From contig JBOEGD010000010.1 of assembly GCA_050633245.1 (NCBI GenBank), positions 189,989 to 253,988 on the forward strand: a stretch of 64,000 nt of DNA, written 5' to 3'. The stretch is from Calditrichia bacterium (GTDB taxonomy: Bacteria > Calditrichota > Calditrichia > RBG-13-44-9 > J075). The position numbers were made by a program, and so were the translations under genes. This document shows, piece by piece, positions 33,064-57,807 of the stretch. The notes under the pieces were generated by a model. It ran no database searches, was not told where the DNA came from, and saw only the letters and a list, made by a program, of their open reading frames with translations. Numbering within the stretch: the stretch's first letter is position 1; every line of letters begins with the position of its first letter.

Positions 33064-33588
33064 TTAGAGATACACGCGAAATGTCAGCAGCATTTCATCT
33101 ACTAAATCTTTTGCCGCTTTAGCATTGTCTGCGCTGCTAATAATGCCAACAGTATAGGCAAAATCATTCATCGTAAAATAATAAGACGCCAAGTATTGCA
33201 TACTACCTGTTGCAGACGGCATAGTACCTTCTATTAGCAAATCCATTGACGCACCTTTTACTGAAACCTGCTGCACATTTGTGGCTTTAAAACCCGGCTG
33301 GGTTTCGAGCAGCTTGGCAACCAGCGTTTCCCGACGTTCATACACATCATCGGGTACGCCCGCTCCCAGCGTGGAAATGATGATATTGTCCGATGCGTCT
33401 GTCAGCTTTTCGGTTAACATTACGTCATACGGTTGCAAACGCGAGGATATCACATGCCAACTCTTAGGTATCTCAAGCGTATAGTTTCCGTCGAGGTTGG
33501 TGTAGTTTTGGGCATAACTCACCATAGTAAGCAAAAATAAAAAAAGTAGTGTTGAGTTGATATAAAATTTGCTCATTTTAATTCCCAT
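33064..33588 (-). CDS. Exported PsbP/DcrB-like protein
   Basis: Signal peptide ending SYAQ; NYTLEIPKSW and a C-terminal FAYTVGI...VDEMLLTFRV pattern typical of the PsbP-like fold. Confidence 0.6.
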   Translation of the reverse strand: MGIKMSKFYINSTLLFLFLLTMVSYAQNYTNLDGNYTLEIPKSWHVISSRLQPYDVMLTEKLTDASDNIIISTLGAGVPDDVYERRETLVAKLLETQPGFKATNVQQVSVKGASMDLLIEGTMPSATGSMQYLASYYFTMNDFAYTVGIISSADNAKAAKDLVDEMLLTFRVYL

Positions 33589-33692
33589 TATACAAGCTCC
33601 CAATCAAAAATAGGTTGACAGTCATTCCAGTATGTCAAGTTTAGGCCATATAGAGATTAAGCAATTTTATTCTTAGCAGGAAAACTAAAGCA

Positions 33693-34097
33693 TTAACTTC
33701 TCTTTCCAATTTGATAACGTCTTATATATTCGAGCGTTAACAACCTGAAGTAATCCAGTTTTAATACATGTTCAACTATTTGAGGGAACTGTGTTTCTAG
33801 CTCAGGAAACTTCCCTCGAAGAAGAGGTTGTTGTTCAATAGCAAAGCTCTCCAACAATTCAACAGCTTCTTCTGGCCTTGATCTTTTTCCCTTGTATATT
33901 ATAGAGTCTGCAATTCCACTAATGCTCACTTCTAACAATGATAAATCTTCTAAGGTAAAATTTGAAGACTTCCACTCGGTTTGATGCAAGACTTTACGTT
34001 CCGCATTGGATATTTTCCTTTGCGTATTAAGTTCCTCAGCCAACTTTCCAATAAGTAGTCTTAAAAATAAAGCCTCCTCCGATACTATCAACGACAT
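33693..34097 (-). CDS. Hypothetical helical protein, candidate immunity protein of the RHS toxin
   Basis: First substantial ORF downstream of the toxin, same strand, GAGG RBS, AT-rich, no signal peptide. Confidence 0.6.
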   Translation of the reverse strand: MSLIVSEEALFLRLLIGKLAEELNTQRKISNAERKVLHQTEWKSSNFTLEDLSLLEVSISGIADSIIYKGKRSRPEEAVELLESFAIEQQPLLRGKFPELETQFPQIVEHVLKLDYFRLLTLEYIRRYQIGKRS

Positions 34098-34402
34098 AAT
34101 TACCTCTCAGGGATTTATATGCAAAAAACATTAAACTTTAACAATTAGAATTGTCTATTCCAGGCTTTTCTATAAGAGATAGTTACATAATATGATGAAT
34201 TTAATTGGAAACTTTAACAATAGTCTTGCCTCATAACTCGGTGGTGCAAAAATAATAGTGCAGCCTTCTCTAATCCCTTCGACTTCAAAACAGATCGAAG
34301 GATTAGCCTCGATCTGATGTAGTAACCAAACAGAAGGCATTAGAGTCATTTATTGAAAACTATAGTATATATAATTTTTTGCCACAACACCGGATTATCT
34401 TC

Positions 34403-37400
34403 TTAATCCTCGTAAAAAAGGTCGTAATTCCATCCAAAAGACACAATTTTACCTTCAGATTTCCCACCTTTTTTTATGATAAACTGTCCTTTACCTGTTT
34501 TCCACCGATCAGTACCATCACTCCTTACCACTTTCTCTGCCTTTCTATTCGAATTAAAGAATTCTCTAGCTTGATTCATATATTGAAGGGGGTTACTTTT
34601 ATCTTTTGCATGTTTGTTAATATGATATCTAAGTGATCTTACGGGAGATTCAAAGGTTCCCTTATCCCATTCTTCCACCATCTTTCTTAGCTCTTTAAAA
34701 TTTACCTTTGAGAAGGTACCATCAGCAAACCTTCCAGGCAACTTCTGATTCTTAGGCCCAAATCGCAGCCCCTTACCTCTAGTAAAAATAGTTACGGCGA
34801 TAGATGTTGTAAGATATCCCCCAGCATAAAACCATTCTTTCTCACCCCACTCAGGCATTCCTTCAAGTGTGGTAGCAAATCCATCAAGCGCTGCATATCC
34901 AAGATTCATCGCATATCTTTTATGCCAATTGCGACCCTCTGGAGTCCACACAGACCAAAACATGCCCACGGGGGTATTGAAAATAACCCATTCAGATGCA
35001 TCTTCTAGTCTTGCTGCGAGTCCCTCGGCATTGAAAGGGAGGGTTGCCATCCTCCATAGTCCAGTTGAAGTTACTGCCTCTGTTATTGGAGCAACAGCTC
35101 CCGTTCCAGCTGACCACCAATTACTTCCTGTTGTAAATGTAGTAGGTCCGCTCTCCCAGACTGATGCAACGTCGATACTGGATACTATTGCTGAGACTGC
35201 TGGCCGTATACGCCCAATATCAGGTGCATTACCGATTGCGGTACGCCATATAGAGGTAGCGTTATCGTCAATCCATCTTCCGATCGGTAATTTGGGATAT
35301 CCCCACCCACGGCAACCAAAATCTGTCCCACACTCAAACCCCCAATCATTTGAGCTTGAGGACTCGGAGGCTGTTGATTCGCCACTGGATAAAGTATGTG
35401 CCCCGTAACCGTGGTAATATCCTCCGTAGGAATAGTCTCCAAATGGGCTATATGGGAAGTAAATATCTCCCCAATTCTGTGACATCATCCCTGATGGATC
35501 TGTTCGATTCGTTGGATTGCTACCAACATAACTATAGGGTGAGGAGTATTCTAACGCTGGGTCCATTGCATAGAAACGACCCAGTTCGGCATCATACAGA
35601 CGGGCACGGTAGTTATAGAGATCGCTTTCAGAATCCAGCTCCTGCCCGGTAAACTGATAGCTGAGCGGCTGTGTTTCGGTGGAGCGCATCACCTCGCCAA
35701 ATGCCGCATAATCATAACTTCCCACAACCAATCCATTTTCATTTACCAGCACGCGATTGGAGCCCAAGTGGTCTTTCAGCGGAAAGAAGGTTTCGCCATC
35801 TTCCGAAAACGCCAGCAGTCCTGTAGGGCCATAAATGTAGGTTCTTGCCTCGCCTGCAACTGTTCCATCCTTGTCGCGCTCGACAAGAATATTACCGGAC
35901 AATCCGGGTTGATACATGGTGCTGGCAGTGGTACTGCTTCCGCTCGGCAGGAAAGATTTCAAGAGTCGTTCACCAGCATCGCTGTATTGAAAGTCCAGCA
36001 CACCGGCATTGGAACCGGTCATGTTGATGCTGCGCGTTAACTGTAGATGCGGGTCATAATAGATGCTGCTAATGTTTTTGGGAGTGGAGGCATTCATGTT
36101 GCCATTAGCATCGTACTGATAGTCCAGGGCAGCGGTGCCGTTGGTATTGATAACGCGGTTGGTGCCGTCTTCGTAGGTATAATTTCTGAAAACCGAACCA
36201 CGCTTCAAGCTCAAGATATTACCGTTGTGGTCATAGCTGATCTCATTACCGGCACCGATACCAATGTCGTAATCATCTAGTGGGGTTTGCGGGCCAAATT
36301 TGGCTTGCGCCTCTACAAAGTTCGCTACCTGAAGGCGCTGTAAATCGTCATATTGAAACTCGACATCATAATTGGTGGGCGGAGGAATATTACCTAAACT
36401 ATTAGACCACAAATAGCTGTAGCTAAGTCTGGCTATATCGCCATTATAATATCCTGTACCAAGATATCCATTCGACGTAAAGTCCAGCTGCTCCCGAAAA
36501 TATCCTGGCGTATGCATATCGGTCATCCAGCCAACGGGATTGTAATCATAAGACGTGGTAACCGTACTGCCGTTTTCAGGATGAATGGATTCGGAAGTCA
36601 TCTGACCAAGCGCATTATAACTGTAGCTGGCATAAAAGTCATCATCTCCGGGAATGCCTACGGATACGGGCTGCCCGAGCCGATTATAGGAATATGTTAC
36701 TATCCCCGAGGCGTTCCCTCCTGTAGCGCTAGCCACAAAAGTAGCTCCGTTCTCGGCAATAAATCCATCTCTCAACACCACCCCTTGCCCGGCAGTAAAG
36801 GTAATATCACTACCGGAGGCCACGGTCGTATTCGTCGAGTTCAAAGAATCACCCGCTTCATGCGTCGCAGTCCCGGAAAGGGTCTGATTATCCACATTCA
36901 GGTTATCTGAATAAAAATTTATTTGGGTTATAAAGCCGGCATTATCATATGTATAATTGGTTGCATACGACGTCGCCTCAAAATCCAGTACCTCTAAGGA
37001 CTTGTTAAGTACTTCGCCATCCGCATTATAAGCATAGCGTTCTTCGATTTCTGCAGCGATATCTATATCGTTATTACTTTGCGTATACTCAAGTCGATTG
37101 AGCAGAGTTGGATCACTGCCGTCGCCATCGTAAAAATACTTCATTCGCCATTTTATCGGAGTCGGGGGGTATGTCGGGTCCGTATCGGCTTTATTTTGCA
37201 GGGAGGTTCCCCAAATAATCTCATCATCTTCCAGGTATCCTTCCTCGACCACGCGGCCAAAATCATCGTACTTCCAGTAACTGATCAAATCTGGGTCTGG
37301 CAGAGCCCCCTCGGCATGCCGACTGAAGCGAACTTGACCCAGTTGGTCATAAATGTAATCCGTTACCCCATCGTCAGAAGAACTGCTGCTGGTTAGAAGA

Positions 37401-43153: not shown

Positions 43154-43230
43154 CGCTTTCTCCCTATAATTAAGCCTGGACACAAGCCATTACTTTCCAA
43201 TGTTCATATCGCTTGTCAAAAACACCTGAT

Positions 43231-44034: not shown

Positions 44035-44082
44035 GTTTAGCTCCTTTTTGGGAAAGTTCTATTTATTCATACGTTCTTAGAA

Positions 44083-44098
44083 AACAAACTCAATGCCA
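44083..44098 (-). promoter_or_regulatory. Putative sigma-54 promoter TGGCATTGAGTTTGTT for the fibre-RHS operon
   Basis: GG and TTG at canonical -24/-12 spacing (-12 reads GT rather than GC); about 50 bp upstream of the start and the AAGGAG RBS. Confidence 0.6.
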
Positions 44099-44146
44099 AA
44101 CACCTAAGCATTTATTTTTAATTGACTTAAACAGCACACACAAACA

Positions 44147-44360: not shown

Positions 44361-45863
44361 CTAAACCGTCTCGGTCAGCACTTCTTCCAAAGTAGTAATT
44401 CCAGCTGCGACATGCCGCAGACCAGACTGACGCAGATTTACAGAATTTTGCTCGCGCAAAGTATTGCGCAACTCGGTAAGACCGCCACCATTAAGAATAA
44501 GATCACCAAGTGCCTCTGTCATAATGAATGGTTCAAATATCGCAATACGACCACTATAGCCGGTGTGGTAACAAGAATTGCATCCCCGACCGCGAAAAAG
44601 TGTAATACCAGATGGCAAAGAAGAGAGGAGTGAAGCACTCAAAGCCGATTTAGCTGCAAAATCTGGTTCACGGCAAGCAGAACAAATTTTACGCACCAAC
44701 CGCTGAGCCAATATCATCCGTACTGCTCCTGCTACCAGAAACGGCTCAATGCCCATATCAATAAGCCTGACAATAGTGCTGGCAGCGTCATTGGTGTGAA
44801 GCGTGCTCAATACCAAATGGCCGGTAAGAGCAGAACGCACGGCAATCTCCGCTGTTTCAGCATCACGGATTTCACCAAGCATAATGATATTTGGGTCCTG
44901 CCTTAGCACTGAACGCAGCACTGATGCGAACGTCAATCCTATATCCGCTCGCACCATGGTCTGATTGACACCCTGAAGGTTGTACTCAATTGGATCTTCA
45001 ATCGTAATAATATTAGATTCTGTGCGATTTAAATAGTTTAGCGCGGAATAAAGCGTCGTGGTCTTTCCACTGCCAGTCGGTCCGGTAACCAGAATCATTC
45101 CATGCGGCATTTTTAGAATTTGCTGAAGTTCATTTAGCAACGCCGACTGCATTTGCAAACTTTCCAAGGATAAATTGAGAGCGGATTTATCCAGAATACG
45201 CATGACTACCTTTTCTCCAAAGTCCGTTGGCAAAGTAGAGACCCGAATATCAACAGCTCTTGGGCCTGCTTCAAAACGAATTCTACCATCCTGCGGGCGA
45301 CGCTTCTCGGCAATATCCAATCCGGACATAATTTTAAGCCGTGAAATAACCGACTGCGGGCGACAATCGGGGTTATCAAATTCTACGAGTTTGCCGTCTA
45401 AACGAAGGCGAATACGGAATACCTCTTCATCGATTTCTACATGGATATCGCTTGCTCCAGCTTCTATGGCACTACGAATTAGCCAATCCACATATGATAC
45501 TACATCGCCATGTTCAGGCTGCTTTTGATAATTGCCCTTACTACGTGCGATATTGAACTGTTTATCTCGCGAGGGAGGCCTATTGGCCTGATAGGCATGG
45601 TTTAAAGCTACTTCAATCTCACTTACCGAATATTTGCTAAAATCTATCTGACAACCAGTCAAAAACCGCAGTTCAGCTCTTTCATTCAATTCCGGAGGCT
45701 GCTCACATGCGAGATGCAGCTTTTTTTCAAGCCATTTTATTGGAACAACGCGATAATATCGTGCCTGCTTTTCAGAAAGTAAGCCAACCACATCGCTCTC
45801 TATTCGGATTTCGCTATCGCTTTTAAGAATCTTGTTTGAATTCACGTCACAACCTTTCAGCAA
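44361..45863 (-). CDS. gspE: GspE/PilB-family assembly ATPase
   Basis: ASDIHVE, LDIAEKRRPQDGRI, TGPTGSGKTTTLY, TIEDPIEY, LRQDPNIIMLGEIRD, LTGHLVLSTLHTN, CxxC...CxxC zinc site. Confidence 0.96.
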   Translation of the reverse strand: MLKGCDVNSNKILKSDSEIRIESDVVGLLSEKQARYYRVVPIKWLEKKLHLACEQPPELNERAELRFLTGCQIDFSKYSVSEIEVALNHAYQANRPPSRDKQFNIARSKGNYQKQPEHGDVVSYVDWLIRSAIEAGASDIHVEIDEEVFRIRLRLDGKLVEFDNPDCRPQSVISRLKIMSGLDIAEKRRPQDGRIRFEAGPRAVDIRVSTLPTDFGEKVVMRILDKSALNLSLESLQMQSALLNELQQILKMPHGMILVTGPTGSGKTTTLYSALNYLNRTESNIITIEDPIEYNLQGVNQTMVRADIGLTFASVLRSVLRQDPNIIMLGEIRDAETAEIAVRSALTGHLVLSTLHTNDAASTIVRLIDMGIEPFLVAGAVRMILAQRLVRKICSACREPDFAAKSALSASLLSSLPSGITLFRGRGCNSCYHTGYSGRIAIFEPFIMTEALGDLILNGGGLTELRNTLREQNSVNLRQSGLRHVAAGITTLEEVLTETV

Positions 45864-45865
45864 AT

Positions 45866-46279
45866 CTAATCAGCAATAGTTTGTCGAACAGCGCCGGTCT
45901 GATCTACCTGCCATACATTAAACACGCCATCCTTATCAAAATCTACCACCGCGACAGCCCGCGCCACATATCCCTGTGGACCGGCATTTTCAATCTCGAT
46001 ACGGTAACGTGCTTCTCCCTGATTTTCGAGAGTTGCCTGCTGCTCGAAACCAATATCTGCAAGCCGGACTGAATAGCGATCATGCTGATAATAGAAGGTT
46101 TCCTGCAAAGTATGTAGATGCTTAAGCATCAGCTTTGCTTCGGTTGTCTTTGCTTGCGTTATCACTGCTGTGAACTTTGGGAGAGCCAATAAAACCAGAA
46201 TACCGATAATAACGATCACGACAAGAATTTCGGTTAAGGAAAAGCCCTCTTCTGATTTGATAAAAATTGCTTTTTTCAT
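45866..46279 (-). CDS. Major (pseudo)pilin with class III signal
   Basis: G|FSLTEILVVIVIIGILVLLALPKF; C-terminal DFDKDG loop; strong GGGAGG RBS. Confidence 0.92.
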   Translation of the reverse strand: MKKAIFIKSEEGFSLTEILVVIVIIGILVLLALPKFTAVITQAKTTEAKLMLKHLHTLQETFYYQHDRYSVRLADIGFEQQATLENQGEARYRIEIENAGPQGYVARAVAVVDFDKDGVFNVWQVDQTGAVRQTIAD

Positions 46280-46362
46280 TTTTTCCTCCCTACCAAATAG
46301 TTCAAAGTTGCGTGGGTCACGACCCACGGTACATTACTGGTTCAGATTTCTGTATTCTGTGT

Positions 46363-47448
46363 TCAGGGCATAATCGCCGCCATGTTAAATAAGGGCAGAT
46401 AAATTGAAATCAGAATCGCACCGATTGCTGCCCCAAGAAAAAGTATCATTACCGGTTCTATGAGCGTCGACATCAGGGCAATAGCACGATCCAATTCATC
46501 ACTTGAGACCGAGGCAATCTTTAGCAACATTTCCGGCAGTTCAGCTGTTTCCTCGCCTACCGTAATCATTTGCGCCACCATTGGAGGAAAAATAACCGAG
46601 TTGTCCAAAGATACCGCCAGCTCATCTCCGCGCCGCACCGAAAGAAGCATCTTGCTCACCTCACCCTGAAATTCACTATTTGGCGTAATGTCCCTGGCGA
46701 TACCTAATGCCTCATGCAGTGCAATTCCACTGGAAAGCAGCGTACCCAGTGTTCGGCAAAACCTTGCCAGATAGTTTAAGCGAACGAGTCTTCCCCAAAA
46801 GGGCAAATGAATAGCAAGCCGATCACAAAAATTGCGAAGGGCAGTAGAATGGCGAAAAATCCAGAGCAGTCCGATCCCTGACAGCATCATTAGCAACAGC
46901 CCTCCCAAATATGCTTGCAGCCATTCACTCAGATTCATTACATTTCTGGTTAGCCAGGGTAACTCTGCATCAAATTCACGAAAGAGCCCTTCAAAAGTGG
47001 GAAGCACAAAAAGCAGAATAAATGAAAGCGCCGTAATTGCAACGAGCACAACCAGAGATGGATAGGATAAAGCTTGCACCAACTTTCGCTTCAATCCGGC
47101 GATCTTTTCCTGATACTCCGAAATCCGGAGCAACATACTCGATAACTGGCCGGTCGCTTCTCCAACCTCAACAAGATTCAGATAAAATCCATTAAACAGG
47201 TTCGGATAATATGTTAACGTATCAACCAGACTATCTCCGGATCTTAAACCGTTCAGTATTTCATTCAGAATATTTCGAAATTCTTTATGATCACACTGCT
47301 TTGTCAACAACTCAAGGCTGTCTACCAGATGGAGTCCCGCACCAAGCAAAATTGCCAAATCCCTGCTAAATGCCCGTTGGATTTTTGCCGGAATCCGACG
47401 ATGATTGCGCGACTCAACATGCGTCTCTTTCTCAATTACCACAGACAC
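46363..47448 (-). CDS. gspF: GspF/PilC inner-membrane platform protein
   Basis: FSRDLAILLGAGL, LVEVGEATGQL, ALSYP, FCRTLGTLLSSGI, MITVGEETAEL, LIEPVMI...IYLPLF. Confidence 0.95.
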   Translation of the reverse strand: MSVVIEKETHVESRNHRRIPAKIQRAFSRDLAILLGAGLHLVDSLELLTKQCDHKEFRNILNEILNGLRSGDSLVDTLTYYPNLFNGFYLNLVEVGEATGQLSSMLLRISEYQEKIAGLKRKLVQALSYPSLVVLVAITALSFILLFVLPTFEGLFREFDAELPWLTRNVMNLSEWLQAYLGGLLLMMLSGIGLLWIFRHSTALRNFCDRLAIHLPFWGRLVRLNYLARFCRTLGTLLSSGIALHEALGIARDITPNSEFQGEVSKMLLSVRRGDELAVSLDNSVIFPPMVAQMITVGEETAELPEMLLKIASVSSDELDRAIALMSTLIEPVMILFLGAAIGAILISIYLPLFNMAAIMP

Positions 47449-47459
47449 ATTCCCCCTTT

Positions 47460-48776
47460 CTACATGTTTAGCTTGCGCATACGCTGCTGTAAATTTTGGC
47501 GGGTTATGCCAAGGTGTCGTGCTGCGGTAGTGATATTTTTTTCATTTTCCTCCAGTGCCCGCAGAATGAGGCGTGTCTCTACTTCGCGCAGGTTGGCCGC
47601 TAAATTCAGTGCTTCTCGCTGTTCCTTCGGATTTACACCCTGAAGGGCCGCCGTTTTTTCCAAATCGCTGATGGTAAGGCGAATATCATAAGGACGAAGT
47701 GTCACTAATACTCCTAAAAGCAAGTTTCGCAGCTGCCGGACATTACCGCTAAACTGGCGCGCACAAAGCCATCGGCAAACTTCCTCAGTAAAGATGCTCT
47801 TCCAACCGGGAATTGTTGCAACCCAGGTTTGCTCGAGAATGTGCTTTGCGATTGTGATTACGTCAGAGGGGCGGTTTCGCAGTGGAGGCAAATTTAACTG
47901 GAGTGCATTTAAGCGATGAAATAGATCTTCTCGAAACTTTCCCTGCTGAATTTCTTTTCTCAATTCGCGATTCGTCAATGCGATTATTCGAATGTCTATT
48001 TTTTTCCGTTCATGACTTCCAACCGGCATAATCTCATTATTATCAATTGCTCTCAATAGCTTGGCCTGAAGATTGATATCGAGCTCACCTATTTCGTCCA
48101 GAATAAGTGTTCCACCATTGGCATAGGCAAAGTGGCCGGTTTTTGCCCGGCTTGCTCCCGTAAAGGCCCCCTTCATATGCCCAAAGAACTCCGAGTCAAA
48201 AAGTTGTGGTGAAATCGCAGCACAATTTACGACATGATATGGCCCCGACTTTCTGGAGCTAAACGAATGAATGTGACTTGCCAGTAAGTCTTTCCCGGTA
48301 CCCGTTTCGCCACAGATCAAAACAGGTTCTTCCAGAAACGCTATTCGCTTTGCACGCTGCATTATGTTTCGCATAGCGCGACTCACGGCAATAATTGGTC
48401 GGTTTGTATCGGGTTGTCCAAATTTTCGTGTTCGCGCGGCCAGAATTGTAACAATCCGTTGCGAAACTGTCTCAATCAATTGATTATCAGCACTAAGGTC
48501 ACCTTCGAGCTGATAGCTATTTTCATTGAGATTCGGTAACCTATGTGGACATGAAATCAGGATGATCATTTTGGGAAAGTGGTTGTTTATTAATTCAACC
48601 GCACAGCGTATTGGTGAGAAAGATTCACCAACAAGCAATACTGCCAACTTACCAGATAGCGAGGCCGGTTCCAGTTCCTCCAGAGAATAAAAATCTGCCT
48701 GAAAAGGATTTAGTAACTCAACATAGTCTTTTAAACTTTGACAATTCTCGGTGATGACAGCCATCCGAAATCTCAT
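47460..48776 (-). CDS. Sigma-54 enhancer-binding protein with degenerate N-terminal domain
   Basis: GETGTGKD, FFGHMKGAFTGA, LDEIGE, FREDLFHRLN, GNVRQLRN, Fis-type HTH; no intact REC motifs. Confidence 0.92.
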   Translation of the reverse strand: MRFRMAVITENCQSLKDYVELLNPFQADFYSLEELEPASLSGKLAVLLVGESFSPIRCAVELINNHFPKMIILISCPHRLPNLNENSYQLEGDLSADNQLIETVSQRIVTILAARTRKFGQPDTNRPIIAVSRAMRNIMQRAKRIAFLEEPVLICGETGTGKDLLASHIHSFSSRKSGPYHVVNCAAISPQLFDSEFFGHMKGAFTGASRAKTGHFAYANGGTLILDEIGELDINLQAKLLRAIDNNEIMPVGSHERKKIDIRIIALTNRELRKEIQQGKFREDLFHRLNALQLNLPPLRNRPSDVITIAKHILEQTWVATIPGWKSIFTEEVCRWLCARQFSGNVRQLRNLLLGVLVTLRPYDIRLTISDLEKTAALQGVNPKEQREALNLAANLREVETRLILRALEENEKNITTAARHLGITRQNLQQRMRKLNM

Positions 48777-48789
48777 TGTTGTCTCCCTA

Positions 48790-49269
48790 TTACTTCCTCA
48801 GCGTAATCCAATCTGTCTTTTTTCCTTTTTTAATACCAAGTTTCTCAGGGTGAATAGCGATAACTTTTATGTTAAAAATTGTGTCACCAACTGCACAAAA
48901 ACCCGTACGCTCGTTTTCCCCTTCTACGATGGCCAACAATCCATTATCCCCCTCCATAAATCCGATGTATTGCACATGAGGCATCCTCACTGGTGGCAGA
49001 GGCTTAGGCCGGGGCTTTTTGATACGGACCGCCTTTTTCTTTGATGGGTAAAACGGGCTTTTCACTTCAGAAATACGCCGAAGGAACGCTTCTTCACTAA
49101 GAAGTACAGGCTCGTTAATATTATTTCTCCGCAAATTATCCTGAAGAGCAACTTCCTCCTCTGTATGAACCTCCAACCCCTGATATATCCGCAACCCCAC
49201 AATTCCCCAAATAATCAGAGATGCAGTAAGCAGTAGGATCGTCGTTCCCCGCTTAACCGTTGTCCTCAT
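48790..49269 (-). CDS. GspC/PilP-like assembly-platform protein (putative)
   Basis: N-terminal TM, SPF motif, Pro/Lys-rich linker, YIGFMEG...LAIV...VGDTIFNIKVIAI beta domain; operon position. Confidence 0.65.
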   Translation of the reverse strand: MRTTVKRGTTILLLTASLIIWGIVGLRIYQGLEVHTEEEVALQDNLRRNNINEPVLLSEEAFLRRISEVKSPFYPSKKKAVRIKKPRPKPLPPVRMPHVQYIGFMEGDNGLLAIVEGENERTGFCAVGDTIFNIKVIAIHPEKLGIKKGKKTDWITLRK

Positions 49270-49825
49270 TCTTGCCTCGTTTATGTATAATTACATCAAG
49301 ATCCAGTTCGAACTTTGTCTTGACGCTGCCTTTCCTGATTATCTGCTGGGAGAATCGCCGAATCTGATAGTTACTTCCTTTCGATTCAAGTACAAAAACA
49401 AGCCTGCTCACCTGCTTGAAACTACCTGAGGCCTGAAGTTTTATCGGCAGCAGAATCAACCGGCCCCGAAGCTGCGGTTTTTCAGGCTTCAGGACAACCA
49501 ACTCGACTCCGCATCTGCGAATTTCTTTGGTCAATGCTTCTATAATCTCGCCCTGATTAGTAAAGTCAGTCAGGCGCGTTTTCATAGAGTCTACCTGAGC
49601 ACGCATTGTCTTATTCCTTTGCCTGAACTGTAAAATAGAATTATTCAAAACCTCAGGTGATGTCTGAAGCTCCTGTTCATTGACAACAGACTTGCGCAAT
49701 TCATACAATGCATCAACCTCCCGAAGCAGTAATCTACTGCATACAAGAATGACCACAATTAGCATGCAGACAGGCCAATAAACGTTGTATTTAGAGTATT
49801 GCAAGAACAACCTCAAAGTAGACAT
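49253..49825 (-). CDS. PilO/GspM-like protein
   Basis: TM, coiled coil, LPIKLQASGSFKQVSRLVFVLE motif. Confidence 0.75.
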   Translation of the reverse strand: MSTLRLFLQYSKYNVYWPVCMLIVVILVCSRLLLREVDALYELRKSVVNEQELQTSPEVLNNSILQFRQRNKTMRAQVDSMKTRLTDFTNQGEIIEALTKEIRRCGVELVVLKPEKPQLRGRLILLPIKLQASGSFKQVSRLVFVLESKGSNYQIRRFSQQIIRKGSVKTKFELDLDVIIHKRGKNEDNG

Positions 49826-51068
49826 ATCCGTTATGGTAGTTTTCCCGCTTGATTCTGCCGCGGAATTCCGATTTAGTAAGCAGCTGCTTTAACTCGATGC
49901 CGCTGACCATGAGAGTTGATTGGAAATTGTTTAGTAGCAATGCGACTTTCTCATCTCCTTCAGCGTATCCGGAGAAGTTCCAGCTTGCCTCCTCCCGCTC
50001 ATTTATTATCTGGGAAAACCATACTCCCTTCGGCGTGATTTCGGCAAACTGCAAAAGCTGTAAAGCTGTAAAAGAAGATGGGATCGCCAGAGAATCAAGA
50101 ATATGCTTGTGCCCACGTAACTCTTGATTCGACCGTTTTAGACTCACCAGCTCGTTTTTCTGCCCTATCAAATTTATATTTTGGGTCTGAAGTTTCAGCT
50201 GTAGATCAGAGTAATAATAGACGGCTCCCGCAATAGCCCCATACATAATCAGTGTTAACATGCCCAGAAGCAGAATACCGCGAAACGCGAGATACTTGAT
50301 CAACACCGTTTGGTCAGCTTTTGTCACCTCACCCTGACGCAGATCTATTTCTGAGGAATCTTTGTTTAATAATGTTAGTGCAGCACCAAAGGCAGCTTGC
50401 TGTGAATCTTTCAGAGGTAAGTCATGAATCCGGCACAACGATGCGCCATATTTGTCTTGTACGCCACTTACTGCATTCTGCTCATCAAGAAGACCTAGCG
50501 TGCTCTCTTCCTTATCACTTAATATCAACTTCCAATACCCCTCAGGGCTGGATGTGCTCAAGCGGGCATCCGAAAGAGAATAATATTTTGTTAACTGATT
50601 AAGTGCATTTAATCGGCTAAACAAGTGCGATCGCTCTGTTGGTATTCCATCCGGGAATTTCGCCAGGCTTCCCAAGCGCCAAAAGGTTATCAGATCAGTT
50701 TCTTTATTCAGAAGCACCTTAATGAAATCAATGTCTGGCTGCTCATCGACCGAAGCACCTCCCAATTTCATTTCCTCTTCAGACATATTACCCGAAAGCA
50801 TATAATGCGTAGCCGATGAGGGCGCGAGAACAGCAATATGAGCGACGTTTCTAAGAAATTCGTCCAGCTTTTGTTCTTTAAATTCGGCCAAAGAAATGCA
50901 ATAACAACGCTGCTTCACGATACAAAATCCACTGAATGTCTTTCTCAGTGTTACAATGCAAATCTCTGAATCAGTTGCGTCGATTCCAACAAACAGATCA
51001 CCGGGAAATGACACCTCTTTCAGGAAACTTAAGGTCTTTTCTACAAACTCCGTGAGTTGCTCCCTCAT
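49791..51068 (-). CDS. PilM/PilN (GspL-like) fusion-type protein
   Basis: Degenerate actin-like start FVGIDATDSEICIV, one TM, coiled coil, PilN motif ITPKGVWFSQI...FSGYA. Confidence 0.7.
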   Translation of the reverse strand: MREQLTEFVEKTLSFLKEVSFPGDLFVGIDATDSEICIVTLRKTFSGFCIVKQRCYCISLAEFKEQKLDEFLRNVAHIAVLAPSSATHYMLSGNMSEEEMKLGGASVDEQPDIDFIKVLLNKETDLITFWRLGSLAKFPDGIPTERSHLFSRLNALNQLTKYYSLSDARLSTSSPEGYWKLILSDKEESTLGLLDEQNAVSGVQDKYGASLCRIHDLPLKDSQQAAFGAALTLLNKDSSEIDLRQGEVTKADQTVLIKYLAFRGILLLGMLTLIMYGAIAGAVYYYSDLQLKLQTQNINLIGQKNELVSLKRSNQELRGHKHILDSLAIPSSFTALQLLQFAEITPKGVWFSQIINEREEASWNFSGYAEGDEKVALLLNNFQSTLMVSGIELKQLLTKSEFRGRIKRENYHNGYVYFEVVLAIL

Positions 51069-52942
51069 TGCCTCTCCCCTCCCGGCAACCAATCTTCTGT
51101 ATACAAAAGGTGAGGTGTTACGTAAATAATTAACTCACTTTTGGCTTTTGTTCTGCTGGTATTGCTAAACAGCTTTCCAAGCAGTGGAATGCGGCCAAGC
51201 AAGGGCACCCGGCTGACACTTTCAGAATCGATTTCCTGAATTAATCCGCCCAGGACAATCGTCTCCCCATCGCGGAGACGAACAGTTGAGCTTAGACTGC
51301 GACTCTGAATATTGGGTGGCAAACTCGGGTCGAGTTGTTCGCCGGGTGTATTGAACTCAGGATAAATTTCAACAGTGATTTCCCCTGACGCACTTACCCA
51401 GGGAGTTACCTTAAGCGAAATATTTATTTCAATAGTTTGAAATCGTTCCGTCGTTTGTAGAAAGACTTGTGATGGGTCGCGAAGTGGTGTTTCGGAAATG
51501 AGTTTATAGTATTGAGTTTCTCCAACCTTCAGCTCAGCACTATGGCCATTAAGAGTAGATATTTGCGGGCGAGAGCGAACTTTGGCTTTGCCGGCACTTT
51601 CCATTGCACGAACCCGCAAATAAAAGTCCTCCGGAAGCTTACCAATGTTCACTCCCGTGAGAGCCTTATCGAGTTTCCCCAAATACTTGTTCGCGACCGA
51701 ACCATTCCAGAGGAAGTCGATACCTGGAATCCAACCGTCTCCCCTTGCACGCGTAGAGTCGCCATAATCTAGCCCGGCCTGCACTGAGAACTCATAACTA
51801 TCCGAGACGGTATAGTCCACCACAAGCGCTTCAAAAAACACTTGTGGTATCGGATTATCAATTTCCTTAAGAATATTCTTAATTTGCATAATGACATCAG
51901 GAGAGCCGTTTACCAGCAACGCATTATGTTCGGGTACAACCTTTATGTCTGATGATGCCGTTACCTTATTCGGTAAACGTTCGATAACACCATCAACTTT
52001 GAGATGATTCAGCCGAAAAAGCCGAGATGTTTGCATGCTCCGTGCATCATTCTTGGCAATAAGATACAGGTTTTTCTTGCGTCGCCAACTAAAACCCGTT
52101 TCCAAAAGTACTGTTTGCAGGCATTCCTCCAGAGTCGCGTCGGTCAGGTTGAGAGTAAGGGAGCCCTGGGGCTCACCGATAATCGACAGGCTTGCTTTTT
52201 CTGTTGAAGCCAATTCACTGAGCACTTTTGCAATTGGAACCTTTTGCGCCTGGATACTTATTCGCCCATCTTTCTTCTGAACCCATAACCCCCTACCCGG
52301 CTCTTTTTTGTCGATAAACATCCGCTCTATCAACCAGGCTTTTCCGTTGCGATTTAAGCGTAATCCATTCGTGCGCATGAGAAGAGTTAATCCCTCTTCA
52401 AAGGGTAAGTTGGTAATCTTTCCGCTGATTGAACCGCTAATAGATTGGTCCGCAAGAATGGTATATCCGGTAGAATCTGCTAATCTCGCCAACACCAACT
52501 TTAGTGGCTCATCATCTACATCCACAGACAAATGTTCATTTCGCCAGTTGATTTTGCAGTTCGGTTCAGGTATCGGTTGTATTTCCGGCATAACGGTTAA
52601 GACACCGTTTTCAAACTCGAGTTGCAATCCATGCCGTTTGGCGATGTGAGTAAGCACATCAATAATCCGAACGTCTGTTAACTGCGTCGTAATCTTTGCA
52701 GCAACCTCCGGACTTACAAATACGTTCAGATGATACTGTTTGGCAATTCCGCGAATGACATCTCGAATATCAGTACTGCGGAAATCCACTGACTTGATTT
52801 TCTCGAAGTACGCTGCCGGCACACCAGACAAACTGCTATCGGCAAGGCTGTCCGCCTCACCAAATGCAGATGCGCGTCCCAGAAAGAGTAGAATCAAAGA
52901 TAAAATCACTAAGAATTTTAGACGCATGGCAAGTGGGCTCAT
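51065..52942 (-). CDS. gspD: Secretin (GspD/PilQ family)
   Basis: SVDFRSTDIRDVIR, NALLVNGSP...IDNPIPQV, SRPQISTLNGHSAELKVGE, VRLRDGETIVLGGLI, VPLLGRIPLLGKLF, ELIIYVTP. Confidence 0.95.
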   Translation of the reverse strand: MSPLAMRLKFLVILSLILLFLGRASAFGEADSLADSSLSGVPAAYFEKIKSVDFRSTDIRDVIRGIAKQYHLNVFVSPEVAAKITTQLTDVRIIDVLTHIAKRHGLQLEFENGVLTVMPEIQPIPEPNCKINWRNEHLSVDVDDEPLKLVLARLADSTGYTILADQSISGSISGKITNLPFEEGLTLLMRTNGLRLNRNGKAWLIERMFIDKKEPGRGLWVQKKDGRISIQAQKVPIAKVLSELASTEKASLSIIGEPQGSLTLNLTDATLEECLQTVLLETGFSWRRKKNLYLIAKNDARSMQTSRLFRLNHLKVDGVIERLPNKVTASSDIKVVPEHNALLVNGSPDVIMQIKNILKEIDNPIPQVFFEALVVDYTVSDSYEFSVQAGLDYGDSTRARGDGWIPGIDFLWNGSVANKYLGKLDKALTGVNIGKLPEDFYLRVRAMESAGKAKVRSRPQISTLNGHSAELKVGETQYYKLISETPLRDPSQVFLQTTERFQTIEINISLKVTPWVSASGEITVEIYPEFNTPGEQLDPSLPPNIQSRSLSSTVRLRDGETIVLGGLIQEIDSESVSRVPLLGRIPLLGKLFSNTSRTKAKSELIIYVTPHLLYTEDWLPGGERQ

Positions 52943-53110
52943 TTTCTTTTCATAATCTTTTATGTTGAGGCGAATAACTGTTCAGTTAGTTTTATGTTAT
53001 TGAACTTCTAATACTCGTTTCAATCTGATATTCTTATAAACGATGAAAATTCTCAAAAAAAATTTCAAAAAATTAAAAAAAAGTTTGACTTTTAGAAAAA
53101 AATCAAACAT

Positions 53111-53551
53111 ATGTTAAATATGAACATTTTTTCCAAACATGCGCTGGGCAGTAAAATAAAATTGGTTATCAAAAATTCTCCGTTTACGCAGAAAGTATTA
53201 GCGAAGGACTTAAAGATAACTGAAACGACCCTTTCAAACTATGTAGCAGGCAGGCGGCTCCCGGACGCTCAGCTAGTTGCAGGTTTGGCAAAACTCTGCA
53301 ATGTCAGTTTAAATTGGCTATTGCTAGGAGAAGGCGACATGTCATTGGAGAAATCGATCCACCCAGCACCGCACCAGGAATTTATCGAGCAGTTAAAGGA
53401 AGAGGTAGAAATGCTTCGCGCTCAAAACAATCAGCTATTAGAGCAGCTAATTAATTTGACATCGACGAGCAGTAAACAGGATAACAAACTCAAGACTCTT
53501 GAAAAAGATGTTCAGATCATAAAGCAGAAGCTTGATAATGAAGATACTTAG
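53111..53551 (+). CDS. XRE-family HTH regulator with C-terminal coiled coil
   Basis: TQKVLAKDLKITETTLSNYVAGRRLP, VSLNWLLLGEGDM. Confidence 0.9.
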   Translation: MLNMNIFSKHALGSKIKLVIKNSPFTQKVLAKDLKITETTLSNYVAGRRLPDAQLVAGLAKLCNVSLNWLLLGEGDMSLEKSIHPAPHQEFIEQLKEEVEMLRAQNNQLLEQLINLTSTSSKQDNKLKTLEKDVQIIKQKLDNEDT

Positions 53552-54896
53552 GGCTAAGCAGTCTTTGAATGACAAAGGTTCTGCGCTTAATGCAGTTCTA
53601 ATGCTTTCATTGCTTGTAAGCCTCACGCTACTAATTTTTCTTAGTGTGTATGTCCGACAGTTTCACTTTGCAAATTCGACTCTTCGAGGAACCCAAGCGC
53701 ACTATCATGCGGAAAGCGGCATCATTGAATGGCTTCATGCAATGGAAAATTATCAGACAGGCTCCCAGCAAAACACATTACAATCGACTCTTCTGCTATC
53801 ATGTGGAGACAGCATTGCAATATCCTCACTGCGCTGGGGAGTCTTTCAACGGGTTTATTCTCGCGAGCATAAAAATGCCAACGGCATTCGCGCTACAATT
53901 GGCTACGCATATGCCAAGCAATTTAATGCCAGTTTGATTGTCCAACCTCTCAATCAGTCGCTGATAGTCTGTGAGGATACACGACTTTACGATCGTGTTA
54001 TCTGCGGACCACAAGGAGTTCGCGCACAACGCTTGCAAGGTGTACCCTATTCCGGAGAAAAACCTGTATATGGCAAACTTTATAAATCTACCCTGGATCA
54101 TCGCCCAAAAGTCCGTCATCAACAACTAAAAGATATTGTGCGGCATTATCGTAAGGGCATTTCAGATTGGCAACACATACAGCTACAAAAGAATGCCATA
54201 AGCCCCGAGAATGTCATTCAACTACCTCAATCCAAGGTGCTATATAAGACGGATCAACTTATTGATTCAAAATCTCCTTTAACCATTATAGGCCCCGGGA
54301 AATTGCTGGTTACAGACGCTTCATTTTTTGAGCAAAAATTAAAGATAAGAAATGAGGTTGAGGTTTTGATTTCAGCAAGATGTCGAATTGGTTCCAACGT
54401 TGAATTACAGAACGTTATACTCTTCTCGACACTGCCATTAAGTCTTAAAGATGTACAAGCGAGCCAGCTCCAGATTATCTCAACAAATGAGGTAATAGTT
54501 GAAGGAAACAGCTCTCTCGGTGAAAATTCGGTTGTACTTTCAATTCCTGATGAAGATGGAATCGGTATTTCAATTCGTGATCGAGTTGCTATTTCGGGAA
54601 GCGTATGCCTGGTAAATAGCAATAACAATCCGGCTGCTTGGAACAACACTATCCAGATTACGCGGAATGCAAGGGTAGAAGGACTGGTCTTCAGCGACTG
54701 GCTATTAAATTTGGGAGGAACAGTAAATGGATGCACTATAGCTAGTCGCTTTCATTTTTATAAATCACCTACTCACTTCTATAACTGGATTCGCAACGCC
54801 ACTATTCGTCAAAGCTCCGAAGCTCTTAGCGGTATTCCTCTTTTTTTCGATTTACCGGACAGCAATCGCGCCGTTGTTTACCGGGAGGAATTATGA
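53538..54896 (+). CDS. GspK/PilX-like large minor pseudopilin with beta-helix-like C-terminus
   Basis: KG|SALNAVLMLSLLV (no Glu5), QAHYHAESGI; repeated V/I/G beta segments (ARVEGLVFS, GGTVNG). Confidence 0.75.
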   Translation: MKILRAKQSLNDKGSALNAVLMLSLLVSLTLLIFLSVYVRQFHFANSTLRGTQAHYHAESGIIEWLHAMENYQTGSQQNTLQSTLLLSCGDSIAISSLRWGVFQRVYSREHKNANGIRATIGYAYAKQFNASLIVQPLNQSLIVCEDTRLYDRVICGPQGVRAQRLQGVPYSGEKPVYGKLYKSTLDHRPKVRHQQLKDIVRHYRKGISDWQHIQLQKNAISPENVIQLPQSKVLYKTDQLIDSKSPLTIIGPGKLLVTDASFFEQKLKIRNEVEVLISARCRIGSNVELQNVILFSTLPLSLKDVQASQLQIISTNEVIVEGNSSLGENSVVLSIPDEDGIGISIRDRVAISGSVCLVNSNNNPAAWNNTIQITRNARVEGLVFSDWLLNLGGTVNGCTIASRFHFYKSPTHFYNWIRNATIRQSSEALSGIPLFFDLPDSNRAVVYREEL

Positions 54897-55249
54897 CCCT
54901 GCAAGATGAAAAAGGATACACTCTGATAGAGGTACTTACAGCGTTGGTATTGCTCTTCCTGATACTCACCCCAACCACTTACGTAATTACCAAGCTAATA
55001 ACCGGTGCTGATATCGAGGATAGAAGAAATGCCAATATTATTTGTATCAATACCGCAGAGAAGGCTCTCCTAATGGGCGAGACCGGCTCTGCTGAGGAGA
55101 ACTATCTGTTCAAGGGCAGGCGCTATCAAATTCGGAAGAAGCTGGAATCAAAGAGAGAAGGCTTGCAGCTTTTCTCTGTGACCGTCTCGCGCCATAAGCG
55201 CATACTAAGTGAACTACACCACGTCTTACCTGCTTTGGAGGAGCGATAG
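54893..55249 (+). CDS. Minor pseudopilin (GspI/PilV-like)
   Basis: KG|YTLIEVLTALVLL. Confidence 0.85.
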   Translation: MTLQDEKGYTLIEVLTALVLLFLILTPTTYVITKLITGADIEDRRNANIICINTAEKALLMGETGSAEENYLFKGRRYQIRKKLESKREGLQLFSVTVSRHKRILSELHHVLPALEER

Positions 55250-55770
55250 TGAACTCGTTATTAATTGAGTATCAGAATCATCCGATCAGAAATGAAAAGG
55301 GGTATACGCTAATCGAACTTTTAATCGCTATGCAGCTCGCAATGATGATAATCGGCCTTGCTGTTTGGGGATATGGGTTTACGACAAAAGTTTTAAATAA
55401 GTGGCAACAGAATGTTGTAAGTCAAATTGAACTGATCCGCCTTGAAAATTCAATTCGTATTCCTTTAAATCGTATTCTGATAATTAAGCAAGCAGATGAA
55501 CGTTTCCTGGCCGGCCAAACGTGCGACGGATCAAAAATTATAATTAAACACGATACCTCAAGTTTGCAATTTAACAGCAAAGTTATTACGGGAATAAAGA
55601 AGCATAGAATACGCTATCATCTCGGAAACAATAATGACATCACTATGGTGGAAAGTGTTCCAAAAGCCTGGTTAAAACACATTCGGGCCATAGAAGTTGA
55701 GTTGCATCCTACTTTAGAAAACGCAAAGCCCATTCGTTTCTTACAGAGAATAAAATGGGGTAAAATTTAA
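55249..55770 (+). CDS. Minor pseudopilin (GspJ/PilW-like)
   Basis: KG|YTLIELLIAMQLAMMII. Confidence 0.85.
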   Translation: MNSLLIEYQNHPIRNEKGYTLIELLIAMQLAMMIIGLAVWGYGFTTKVLNKWQQNVVSQIELIRLENSIRIPLNRILIIKQADERFLAGQTCDGSKIIIKHDTSSLQFNSKVITGIKKHRIRYHLGNNNDITMVESVPKAWLKHIRAIEVELHPTLENAKPIRFLQRIKWGKI

Positions 55771-56543
55771 AAAAAGCCAAGTATATGCAACAACTCAGAC
55801 TCACTGGGGAACAAAAGTAATATTGTGGATGCGCACAAAAAACTTCCGAACGGTAGTTCATTATTTATTCTCTTCTTGTCATATAGATAGGTAAGCCCAG
55901 CATATAACAGTCCCAGAGTTGATGCTAAAAAAAGCGATGCTAAGAAACCAGATATTCCCAGCGCCATTCCGATAACCATGCCCAATTTCACATCACCTAA
56001 ACCCATGCTCTCACGACCCAAACAATAATTTCCTACTCGCCTTATCAGTAGTAGTAATGCTGAAGCCATGAAGCCATCTAATAAACGTACCGCAAACTGA
56101 TCTTCGACAAACCCCTGAATCAACAAGATGACGCCTGCCGTCGCTACCAGAAAATTCGGGATTCTATAGTGTTGCCAATCAATCACGAGAATCGTAGCGA
56201 GGACTGAACCAATAATCAGAACCGACAAGGCCTGCAAGGAGAATCCAAAATAAATCACAGTGATGGTAAAGAACATGCCGGAAAAGAGTTCAACGAGAGG
56301 ATATTGAACTGAGATTTTCGATCTGCAGCTTGCACATCGCCTACCGAGTAAAAAATAACTCAAAATAGGAATGTTATGGAATGCCGAAATAGCATGGGTA
56401 CATACCGGACAATAAGATCGCCTCGGATTCAGTAACGAAATCCCACGAGGAATGCGATAGATACAGCTATTTAAAAAACTGCCAATCAGCAGTCCTAAAA
56501 TAGCAACAGATAAGAGGATAAGTTCAGGCGCGACTTTAGACAT
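55767..56543 (-). CDS. pilD: Prepilin peptidase/N-methyltransferase (A24A)
   Basis: GSFLNSCIYRIP, SYCPVC..NIPILSY..GRRCASC, YPLVE, IDWQHYRIP, MGLGDVKL, LPFGSFL. Confidence 0.96.
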   Translation of the reverse strand: MSKVAPELILLSVAILGLLIGSFLNSCIYRIPRGISLLNPRRSYCPVCTHAISAFHNIPILSYFLLGRRCASCRSKISVQYPLVELFSGMFFTITVIYFGFSLQALSVLIIGSVLATILVIDWQHYRIPNFLVATAGVILLIQGFVEDQFAVRLLDGFMASALLLLIRRVGNYCLGRESMGLGDVKLGMVIGMALGISGFLASLFLASTLGLLYAGLTYLYDKKRINNELPFGSFLCASTILLLFPSESELLHILGFF

Positions 56544-57805: not shown

Positions 57806-57807
57806 GC

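Follow-up and report, generated by a model that had tools for sequence, protein, structure and literature searches.

How does an RHS polymorphic toxin that begins with a Sec signal peptide leave the cell that makes it? The question is raised by a 23.5-kb block at positions 33064-56543 of a 64,000-nucleotide stretch of a Calditrichia bacterium genome (hereafter the window). In this block the genes of a type IV filament (TFF) machine, complete at 44361-56543 and without a gene for a retraction ATPase, are accompanied by a toxin module, located on the same strand 3' of gspE, that consists of a tail-fiber-like gene, an RHS gene and an open reading frame (ORF) of 134 aa. RHS toxins are known as effectors of type VI secretion (T6SS), as cargo of Tc toxins and as Sec-exported, wall-bound toxins. 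We know of no exit route for the signal-peptide-bearing RHS proteins with a DUF6443 domain of diderm Bacteroidota and their allies. Gene content and gene neighborhoods make it probable that the machines of the clade defined by the window's assembly ATPase (clade A) are functionally linked with fiber/RHS modules. With a probability of roughly 55%, we think that the filament machine takes the fiber and RHS proteins from the periplasm to the cell surface or beyond it.

The original prediction had proposed conserved linkage of this pilin/GspE clade with fiber genes and signal-peptide RHS genes as its test, and the outcome was largely positive. Scanning 185,579 species, each represented by a single genome, with an alignment of the N-terminal 480 residues of the RHS protein yielded 69 loci. 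A fiber homolog lies directly 5' of the RHS gene in 18 of them and anywhere in the locus in 25; filament-machine genes are present in seven. The lineages showing the linkage are Balneolaceae, Flavobacteriales, Cytophagales and the window's own phylum. In one Balneolaceae genome (G047), a single strand carries the genes for GspE, secretin, PilMN, PilO, PilP, pilin and peptidase, followed by a module of five fiber genes, an RHS gene (2914 aa) and a 192-aa gene, and then by the genes for a K-like pilin, two minor pilins and GspF. The cluster of G046 holds two modules, one in the GspE/secretin interval and the other in the pilin/minor-pilin interval. Pilin, peptidase, GspE and secretin genes of Marinoscillum (G045) lie between about 15 fiber genes and two RHS modules, and in Flavobacteriales (G048-G051) a pilin-peptidase-GspE-secretin unit stands back to back with genes for the fiber, RHS-B and RHS-A. 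According to Pfam, the large neighbors of these clusters are DUF6443-RHS proteins.

The linkage is also seen away from the loci through which genomes had been recruited: three of them (G041, G042, G060) have fiber and/or DUF6443-RHS genes inside the clade-A cluster. These three and G095 carry RHS genes with or without fibers at that cluster and SpvB-type RHS genes elsewhere. Two further clusters (G089, G091) are accompanied by fibers only and one (G082) by neither, while the contig of G093 is too short to judge. G091 and G095 belong to the Flavobacteriales. The stretches G052:C70, G091:C22, G093:C1, G095:C30 and G082:C1, which are distinct from the contigs of L077, L076, L084, L087 and L062, entered the analysis solely as separate views of filament clusters, and L099 was left aside. 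Within the window's phylum, DUF6443-RHS genes lie beside or inside the cluster in G025 and G126, and fiber-like genes lie between pilin and gspE in G004. Clusters of the type IVa pilus (T4aP) type, which combine PilT with a PilB of about 591 aa, served as controls: none of seven (five from Balneolaceae, two from the window's genome) has fiber or RHS genes nearby, compared with six of seven clade-A clusters of the same genomes. Overall, the sites at which modules stand, within clade-A clusters or next to them, are of at least four different kinds in four lineages, and the RHS types vary (SpvB-fused, split A+B, PKD-type A).

Co-occurrence across genomes points the same way in three of the four samples that we drew. 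Among 56 genomes of the window's phylum (at least 90% complete; clade A defined as E ≤ 1e-125 to the window ATPase), five have both the machine and a DUF6443 gene, three only the machine, six only DUF6443 and 42 neither (odds ratio 11.7). Three of their 13 DUF6443 loci, which are distributed over 11 genomes, lie within 10 kb of a clade-A ATPase gene versus 0.04 expected. Of 61 evenly drawn Flavobacteriaceae, the same 10 have the ATPase (E ≤ 1e-60) and DUF6443, and 51 have neither; in nine new ATPase genomes of this family, DUF6443 lies 5-26 kb from the ATPase gene in six, versus 0.22 expected. Balneolaceae behave likewise, with the same six of 51 genomes having both and 45 having neither, and with adjacency at 9-11 kb in two of three new genomes. 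All 19 Flavobacteriales with an SpvB-type RHS possess the ATPase, versus 9/60 in the even sample. Even where DUF6443 genes are mostly far from the cluster (G049, G156, G041, G042), their carriers always have the cluster. It is the varied embedding within one clade, the absence from the pilT-linked clade and the identical distributions in two families that make the functional link probable. Moreover, identical genome sets in two families fit dependence of toxin and machine better than mere co-use.

We next consider what kind of machine this is. The original prediction called it like a type II secretion system (T2SS), an assignment that the family models do not establish: the scores of PilB and PilQ equal or exceed those of GspE and GspD. 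All NCBIfam equivalog models remain below their cut-offs on the machine genes, and pilus and type II models score alike. The secretin reaches 234.8 bits with the PilQ model (cut-off 284.35) versus 180.2 with GspD (cut-off 351.35), and PilQ and GspD chains in PDB match it about equally. For the ATPase, the values are 533.4 bits with PilB (cut-off 675.65) versus 529.7 with GspE (cut-off 630.25); against PDB chains, PilB gives 416 bits and GspE 378. The platform protein scores 292.9 bits with GspF (cut-off 424) versus 273.8 with PilC, both sub-threshold, and the major pilin 35.6 with GspG (cut-off 88.85), its best models being PilA and ComP_DUS. NCBIfam models of GspH, GspJ and GspK had no match in the cluster; it does have prepilin motifs and a K-like N-terminus, so the pseudopilin parts are analogous to the Gsp families rather than members of them by these models. 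A type IVa pilus is not indicated either, as the cluster has no PilT and no PilY1-like gene and the PilB/PilQ equivalogs are sub-threshold; the PilT-like genes of the genome lie beside two clusters on contig C1. In a tree of 31 ATPases, clade A consists of three lineage groups and, as had been anticipated, the window's ATPase lies outside the pilT-linked T4aP clade, branching apart from the PilB group beside PilT with 100/100 support. By its sequences, the machine appears to be a TFF machine of ambiguous class, between T2SS and type IV pilus. Its composition is type II-like: one assembly ATPase, no retraction ATPase and three minor pilins.

This ambiguity is one of a number of observations that weigh against export by the machine, and several of those given in this paragraph and the next belong with it. 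The alternative that survives best is an indirect link, which we regard as unlikely but deserving serious attention. The filament would then be a surface pilus for contact, adhesion or DNA uptake that is co-used in antagonism or predation; fiber and RHS would exit otherwise, by vesicles, lysis or a pathway not yet known, and the genes would cluster through co-regulation and co-inheritance. Such a pilus would suit the PilB/PilQ-leaning scores of ATPase and secretin and the PilA/ComP_DUS character of the pilin. The fiber's nearest solved relatives are prey-recognition fibers of a predatory bacterium (PMC10769870). A co-used pilus would also suit the occurrence of RHS/fiber modules in genomes without the machine. 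No ATPase match at E ≤ 1e-60 was found in 22 of 64 genomes with this RHS type, a count that leaves out loci L041, L079, L086 and L088. Two single-chromosome assemblies (G043, G044) have an SpvB-type RHS and neither a PF00437 ATPase nor a secretin, and in G044 a fiber gene stands 5' of the RHS gene. Another exit route must therefore exist. The word "dedicated", used for the exporter in the original prediction, is thus not borne out, the more so as clade-A clusters are often toxin-free. At the window's locus, two terminator-like hairpins between gspE and the fiber gene, again in keeping with a co-used pilus, make co-transcription unlikely. Matches to a sigma-54-type promoter pattern number 54 in the window versus 59 expected by chance, and we gave no weight to the one site 5' of the fiber gene (44084-44098, minus strand). 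Finally, a Tc-like cocoon protein of about 320 kDa would be larger than any type II substrate known to us. Several features argue for the export reading over a co-used pilus. The clusters contain no retraction ATPase, Flavobacteriales carriers have one PF00437 gene only (E ≤ 1e-20), and the minor pilins form a small, K/I-like set. Modules stand between co-directional machine genes in five or more genomes of Balneolaceae, and the ATPase and DUF6443 genome sets of two families are identical. A competence pilus as such was rejected, since no com genes were seen in the window, and it is kept solely as a part of this alternative.

More doubtful is the view that there is no functional link at all. 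Clade-A clusters would then be variable accessory regions in which mobile RHS/fiber cassettes land, and the shared distribution would come from ancestry or mobile elements. Mobility of the modules is suggested by two loci (L044, L047) in which the RHS module lies beside conjugative-transfer genes, and by the absence of an SpvB-type RHS from all 40 relatives of the window's genome, although nine of these have clade-A clusters; in seven of the nine, unrelated genes lie 3' of gspE. The clade-A cluster itself is sporadic, being found in 8/56 genomes of the phylum, 10/61 Flavobacteriaceae and 6/51 Balneolaceae, and the block of the window sits between xdhC and coxE/coxD. Within the window's genome, a paralogous cluster on contig C18 has neither fiber nor RHS, and the other RHS loci (C33, C9) and the other fiber gene (C30) are far from filament clusters. 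Cytophagales show no significant association: among 81 genomes, seven have both, eight only the TFF machine, 21 only DUF6443 and 45 neither (odds ratio 1.9, p 0.21), so that 8/15 ATPase genomes lack a DUF6443 toxin; adjacency within 21 kb is seen in three of the seven genomes with both. Besides, the kinship of the sampled genomes is not given in the three other-lineage samples, and Fisher and Poisson figures therefore overstate independence. Yet chance landing fits poorly with at least four insertion points in four lineages, with RHS types that differ between them, and with the complete absence of modules from the seven T4aP clusters of the same genomes. Nor does it explain why distant DUF6443 genes (G049, G156, G041, G042) are still confined to cluster-bearing genomes, or why the ATPase tree follows lineage, with the window's ATPase as sister to its own paralog.

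The history of the locus can be read to some extent from the other clusters of this genome, a 59-contig draft that holds four of them: the one in the window (contig C10), the C18 paralog and two on C1. The C18 cluster (C18:1300-18400, L001) is about 50% identical to the one in the window (ATPase 53%, secretin 50%), and the sister relation of the two ATPases has 95/98 support. The machine is therefore native and did not arrive with the toxin, and on the same ground we rejected an origin of the whole block in Bacteroidota. The 40 related genomes have no relative of the fiber-RHS unit, which was probably gained and then inserted behind gspE. Where the window's cluster has the sigma-54 activator, the C18 cluster has three tandem genes (497, 548 and 520 aa, no Pfam match), and downstream of this cluster lies an IS-type integrase gene. 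In the C1 region (C1:13600-36600), two T4aP-like clusters stand in tandem; both encode a PilB of about 597 aa and a PilT-like ATPase, and their secretins are short (open frames of 409-430 aa). In three relatives (G029, G031, G033; L014, L017, L019), rpoN lies no more than 5 kb past a clade-A cluster that includes a sigma-54 activator; it was identified by Pfam for the G029 gene and as matching 489-aa ORFs in the other two.

The RHS protein displays repeats (RHS_repeat, E 2.4e-13), a core with a cleavage motif and a variable C-terminus, as expected of an RHS polymorphic toxin. SpvB (PF03534) covers residues 94-269 (26.4 bits, cut-off 22) and DUF6443 residues 1720-1833 (26.9 bits with Pfam, 34.1 in a six-frame search). 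The Rhs core (Rhs_assc_core, 70.1 bits, cut-off 32.5) spans residues 2492-2566 and ends in DPSG (residue 2562). Pfam searches to E ≤ 5 added nothing for residues 300-1700 and gave no match for the C-terminal toxin of about 360 aa, which matches no known family; an Atlas search with the last 147 aa produced leads only, all nuclease-type (MafB 0.91, RNase-like 0.85-0.86). A word-indexed search of 5.8 billion proteins recovered just five relatives of residues 60-1700. Relatives share the architecture and differ in their C-termini, those of P0006-P0008 being unrelated. When an AlphaFold model of residues 61-1260 (pLDDT 63.7) was compared by Foldseek, the best match was mosquito SGS1 (8fjp, E 1.8e-25), followed by TcdB/YenB (E 1e-17 to 4e-21); T6SS Rhs shells matched far more weakly (TMq about 0.1). 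The TcB-like part A corresponds to about residues 70-1340. In other genomes, the RHS protein is split into an A gene of about 1,250-1,460 aa, equivalent to these residues, and a B gene with DUF6443, RHS repeats, core and toxin. These split forms and the SpvB/TcB-like fold lead us to view the protein as a TcB/TcC-like "BC" toxin with a Sec signal. The TcB/TcC-like character given to the toxin in the original prediction is supported by the Pfam domains and, at the level of a model, by the fold. Elsewhere in the genome, contig C33 (L003) encodes a 1,905-aa DUF6443-RHS protein followed by two ORFs (323 and 351 aa) that repeat the end of the Rhs core and look like orphan toxin cassettes.

It had further been claimed that the RHS protein lacks PAAR and a type IX secretion system (T9SS) tail and has no VgrG/Hcp neighbors. 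Pfam and NCBIfam searches found no PAAR, VgrG or T9SS tail on the RHS protein, and PF18962 is on neither RHS nor fiber, although such a tail is indeed real elsewhere in the window (59013-59834). The T6SS sheath VipB/TssC had no match in the genome (97% complete), whereas the E. coli control was positive. Searches for the TcA families PF18276 (TcA_TcB_BD) and PF03538 (VRP1) found no match in the genome; they were also silent in all 14 control genomes and therefore do not exclude TcA. That the protein is the BC part of a classical Tc ABC toxin, or a T6SS or T9SS effector, whose partner was missed elsewhere in the draft assembly would suit the SpvB domain, the TcB-like fold and the silent TcA controls but is highly improbable, given a signal peptide that implies a periplasmic stage and is, to our knowledge, absent from TcB/TcC, no match to sheath or TcA families, and no PAAR or T9SS C-terminal domain on RHS or fiber.

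For the fiber protein, Pfam returned no match at E ≤ 5, S74 included. Homologs number at least 6,747 at E ≤ 1e-5 among 7,995 candidates scored; some are named by their sources "Peptidase S74 domain-containing" or "Chaperone of endosialidase", and the conserved part is the C-terminal 110 residues. The best Foldseek matches of an AF2 model (pLDDT 74) are Bdellovibrio mosaic adhesive trimer (MAT) fibers (8ond, 8oml, 8onc; E 4e-5 to 1e-3), and phage S74 tail fibers match as well, both groups with probability 1.0 but TMq values of just 0.2-0.4. The predicted fold is in keeping with the fiber gene of the original prediction and is tail-fiber/MAT-like. The MAT fibers of Bdellovibrio bacteriovorus (Bd2133, Bd1334, Bd3182, Bd2439; PMC10769870) share with our fiber a beta-rich region behind a signal peptide, many paralogs per genome and, presumably, a trimeric tail-fiber-like build with relatives among S74-type chaperones. 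The window's fiber differs in that its C-terminal part is conserved and its N-terminal part variable, and in being RHS-linked; its TM-scores to MAT fibers are low (0.23-0.32), and it has no Pfam S74 match.

Some arrangements of fiber genes in other genomes deserve separate mention. In Balneolaceae modules, an OmpH/Skp-like chaperone gene (E 1e-26 to 1e-28; L094:691-1239, L100:12899-13444) lies between the fiber genes and the RHS A gene, beside a 230-235-aa gene without known family. In Marinoscillum, about 15 fiber paralogs surround one filament cluster with two RHS modules (G045:C1:4088000-4137773; L096, L097, L063), and two more DUF6443 genes lie 10-20 kb further out. Two Cytophagales loci without a filament ATPase (L044:1-9354, L047:2948-5692) have split RHS A+B genes directly after either conjugative-transposon genes (TraG, TraM, TraO, TraQ, coupling protein) or the gene of a TrwC relaxase. 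The fiber arrays next to toxins, with as many as about a dozen paralogs, suggest a modular targeting layer.

How might export by the filament machine proceed? The signal peptides of fiber and RHS, together with the OmpH/Skp-like chaperone of Balneolaceae modules, make a periplasmic stage plausible. Both proteins would be exported by Sec and fold in the periplasm, where the RHS shell would enclose the C-terminal toxin after self-cleavage at the core motif. GspE and GspF, acting on a PilMN-O-P platform, would build a pilin filament tipped by the K-like and I-like minor pilins, and by analogy with the T2SS, this filament would push the cargo through the secretin. As a trimer, the fiber would serve the cocoon as its receptor-binding partner; protection of the producer would come from the 134-aa cytoplasmic protein, and the sigma-54 activator and the XRE regulator would control expression. 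All these steps are inferred, including the cocoon's transit through the secretin and an adhesin role for the fiber, whereas gene content, signal peptides (read from the sequence), TcB-like and RHS-core architecture, tail-fiber-like fold and recurrent linkage were observed.

Gene calls in the block are based on the ORF listing and on Pfam and NCBIfam family searches, which bore out all gene positions of the original prediction (Table 1). Its more specific assignments fared unevenly. In the gene described as PilMN, the PilN-like C-terminal end is recognizable, though sub-threshold, while the PilM half has no match; the 433-aa product may be a PilM-PilN (GspL-like) fusion, and the syntenic 468-aa Balneolaceae gene reaches 29.6 bits with PilN. 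The gene described as PilP/GspC-like is in the right position and has weak BLAST matches to syntenic genes but no Pfam (to E ≤ 5) or NCBIfam match. "Directly downstream" is correct as to strand and order; a 326-bp gap with the two hairpins nevertheless parts gspE from the fiber gene. Likewise, the candidate immunity gene does follow the RHS gene, with its start 305 bp past the RHS stop, and its product has no Pfam (to E ≤ 5) or NCBIfam match. An XRE-type gene, absent from the original account, heads the minor-pilin operon, and a 41%-identical gene occupies the same position in the C18 cluster. Sigma-54 activator homologs are found inside several related clusters. With the pilins of every clade-A cluster examined, the major pilin shares 40-68% identity; homologs of the K-like minor pilin occur in all Balneolaceae and most Flavobacteriia clusters, and its C18 paralog carries PilX_N. 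The 179-aa ORF at the end of the block has no Pfam match even at E ≤ 5.

Table 1. Features of the filament-RHS block, in window coordinates.
Feature	Position	Strand	Evidence and remarks
Signal-peptide protein, 179 aa	33064-33603	-	End of block; no Pfam/NCBIfam family; membership in system uncertain
Candidate immunity protein, 134 aa	33693-34097	-	No signal peptide; position only
RHS polymorphic toxin, 2,926 aa	34403-43183	-	Signal peptide, SpvB, DUF6443, RHS repeats, Rhs core
Tail-fiber-like protein, 267 aa	43231-44034	-	Signal peptide, beta-rich region, C-terminal S74-chaperone-like region, coiled coil
Two terminator-like hairpins	44313-44277 and 44173-44147	-	15-pair and 12-pair stems with T-rich tails; consensus matches only
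Assembly ATPase GspE/PilB, 500 aa, clade A	44361-45863	-	PF00437 E 2.9e-132
Major (pseudo)pilin, 153 aa	45866-46327	-	N_methyl, ComP_DUS; prepilin motif G/FSLTEILVV
GspF/PilC platform protein, 361 aa	46363-47448	-	PF00482 E 4e-53
Sigma-54-dependent activator, 438 aa	47460-48776	-	PF00158 E 3.7e-63; HTH_8; no receiver domain
Protein in PilP/GspC position, 159 aa	48790-49269	-	22-28% identity to syntenic genes of related clusters
PilO/GspM-like protein, 190 aa	49253-49825	-	PF04350 26 bits, above cut-off 22
Inner-membrane platform protein, 433 aa	49791-51092	-	C-terminal PilN-like region, 20.6 bits, below cut-off 22.8
Secretin, 625 aa, N0/STN N-domains	51065-52942	-	PF00263 E 1.6e-44; STN E 1.3e-19
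XRE-type helix-turn-helix regulator, 146 aa	53111-53551	+	HTH_19/HTH_3; coiled-coil tail; overlaps start of minor-pilin operon
GspK/PilX-like large minor pilin, 454 aa	53532-54896	+	N-terminus KGSALNAVLMLSLL, without Glu5
Minor pilin, 118 aa, weakly GspI-like	54893-55249	+	N_methyl; GspI model 23.5 bits, below cut-off 44.35
Minor pilin, 173 aa	55249-55770	+	N_methyl
Prepilin peptidase, 258 aa	55767-56543	-	A24_N_bact E 1.7e-29; Peptidase_A24 E 4.2e-12

The block is flanked by xdhC (31602-32654) on one side and by cox genes on the other, namely coxE-like VWA, MoxR-type AAA and CO-dehydrogenase flavoprotein genes at 56633-58701 and 63267-63995, so that it looks as if it had been inserted into a cox/xdh gene group. 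The sigma-54 activator, used as a tblastn query, has more than 30 paralogs across the genome; another sigma-54 activator, with a receiver domain and an adjoining histidine kinase gene, is encoded at 26715-29470. Farther away, at 10661-14437, lies the gene for a 1,258-aa PP2C-phosphatase protein whose 3' two-thirds are strongly skewed in composition (AT skew 0.46 and GC 0.51 at 12001-14000, many long antisense ORFs), which suggests a long low-complexity or repeat domain.

Among known systems, the closest to the machine is the putative T2SS of Cytophaga hutchinsonii and other Bacteroidetes (chu_3191-3202; Fjoh_0611-0622); its mutants in C. hutchinsonii were altered in cell-surface and outer-membrane proteins rather than in the soluble secretome (PMC5553014), a result on a similar machine that favors the export reading. 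As in the window, that system includes a secretin, an ATPase, a short prepilin peptidase, a major pseudopilin, GspF and two to three divergent minor pseudopilins; its L/M/C-like platform genes lack clear Pfam matches, and the whole does not form one operon. The window's cluster has in addition the sigma-54 activator and the XRE regulator, and no RHS or fiber cargo is mentioned in the accessible text on C. hutchinsonii. Gene content suggests that the two may belong to the same clade.

As for the cargo, the BC subcomplex of Tc toxins (TcdB2-TccC3, YenB-YenC; 4o9x, 6h6e, 4igl) resembles the window's RHS protein in SpvB, in the modeled fold of part A, in a shell with Rhs core, DPxG cleavage motif and variable C-terminal toxin, and in the existence of fused and split forms. 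The window's protein differs from it by the Sec signal peptide, by DUF6443 and about 400 additional aa between parts A and B, and by the accompanying candidate immunity gene, fiber-like partner gene and filament-machine linkage. Mosquito SGS1 (8fjp), the best structural match of part A (TMq 0.46), is of nearly the same length (2,932 vs 2,926 aa); it is eukaryotic, and the comparison is limited to a moderate-confidence model of residues 61-1260. T6SS Rhs effectors (RhsA 7q97, Tse5 8cp6, RhsP 8h8b) likewise have a shell, a core, a polymorphic C-terminal toxin and a downstream immunity gene (in the window a candidate one), but the window's protein has a signal peptide instead of a PAAR/VgrG-binding N-terminus, and the genome has no sheath gene.

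Dedicated type II systems with an adjoining substrate gene exist, namely Pul with pullulanase and Hxc with LapA. Their substrates are Sec-exported, periplasm-folded enzymes of about 50-170 kDa, whereas the cargo in the window would be a polymorphic RHS cocoon of about 320 kDa plus a fiber. In literature text searches, we came across no RHS system described as linked to a filament or type II machine, and DUF6443 returned no paper.

The clade-A machine, which matches the toxin genome for genome in two families, offers a concrete and testable answer to the question of export, and cultured carriers exist (Flavobacterium, Aquimarina and Tenacibaculum isolates), making the idea directly testable. 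A broader reading, which we put forward tentatively and hold to be possible rather than probable, is that the "putative Bacteroidetes T2SS" is a dedicated weapon of the Fibrobacteres-Chlorobi-Bacteroidetes (FCB) group that exports or fires Sec-delivered, Tc-like DUF6443-RHS cocoons aimed by interchangeable fiber-like adhesins. If this is true, a widespread putative T2SS that has no known substrates so far would gain a function, and type II-like secretion would extend to a far larger, polymorphic cargo. It would also constitute a new pairing of secretion system and effector comparable to that of the T6SS with Rhs proteins, of which the window would provide a complete single-locus example.

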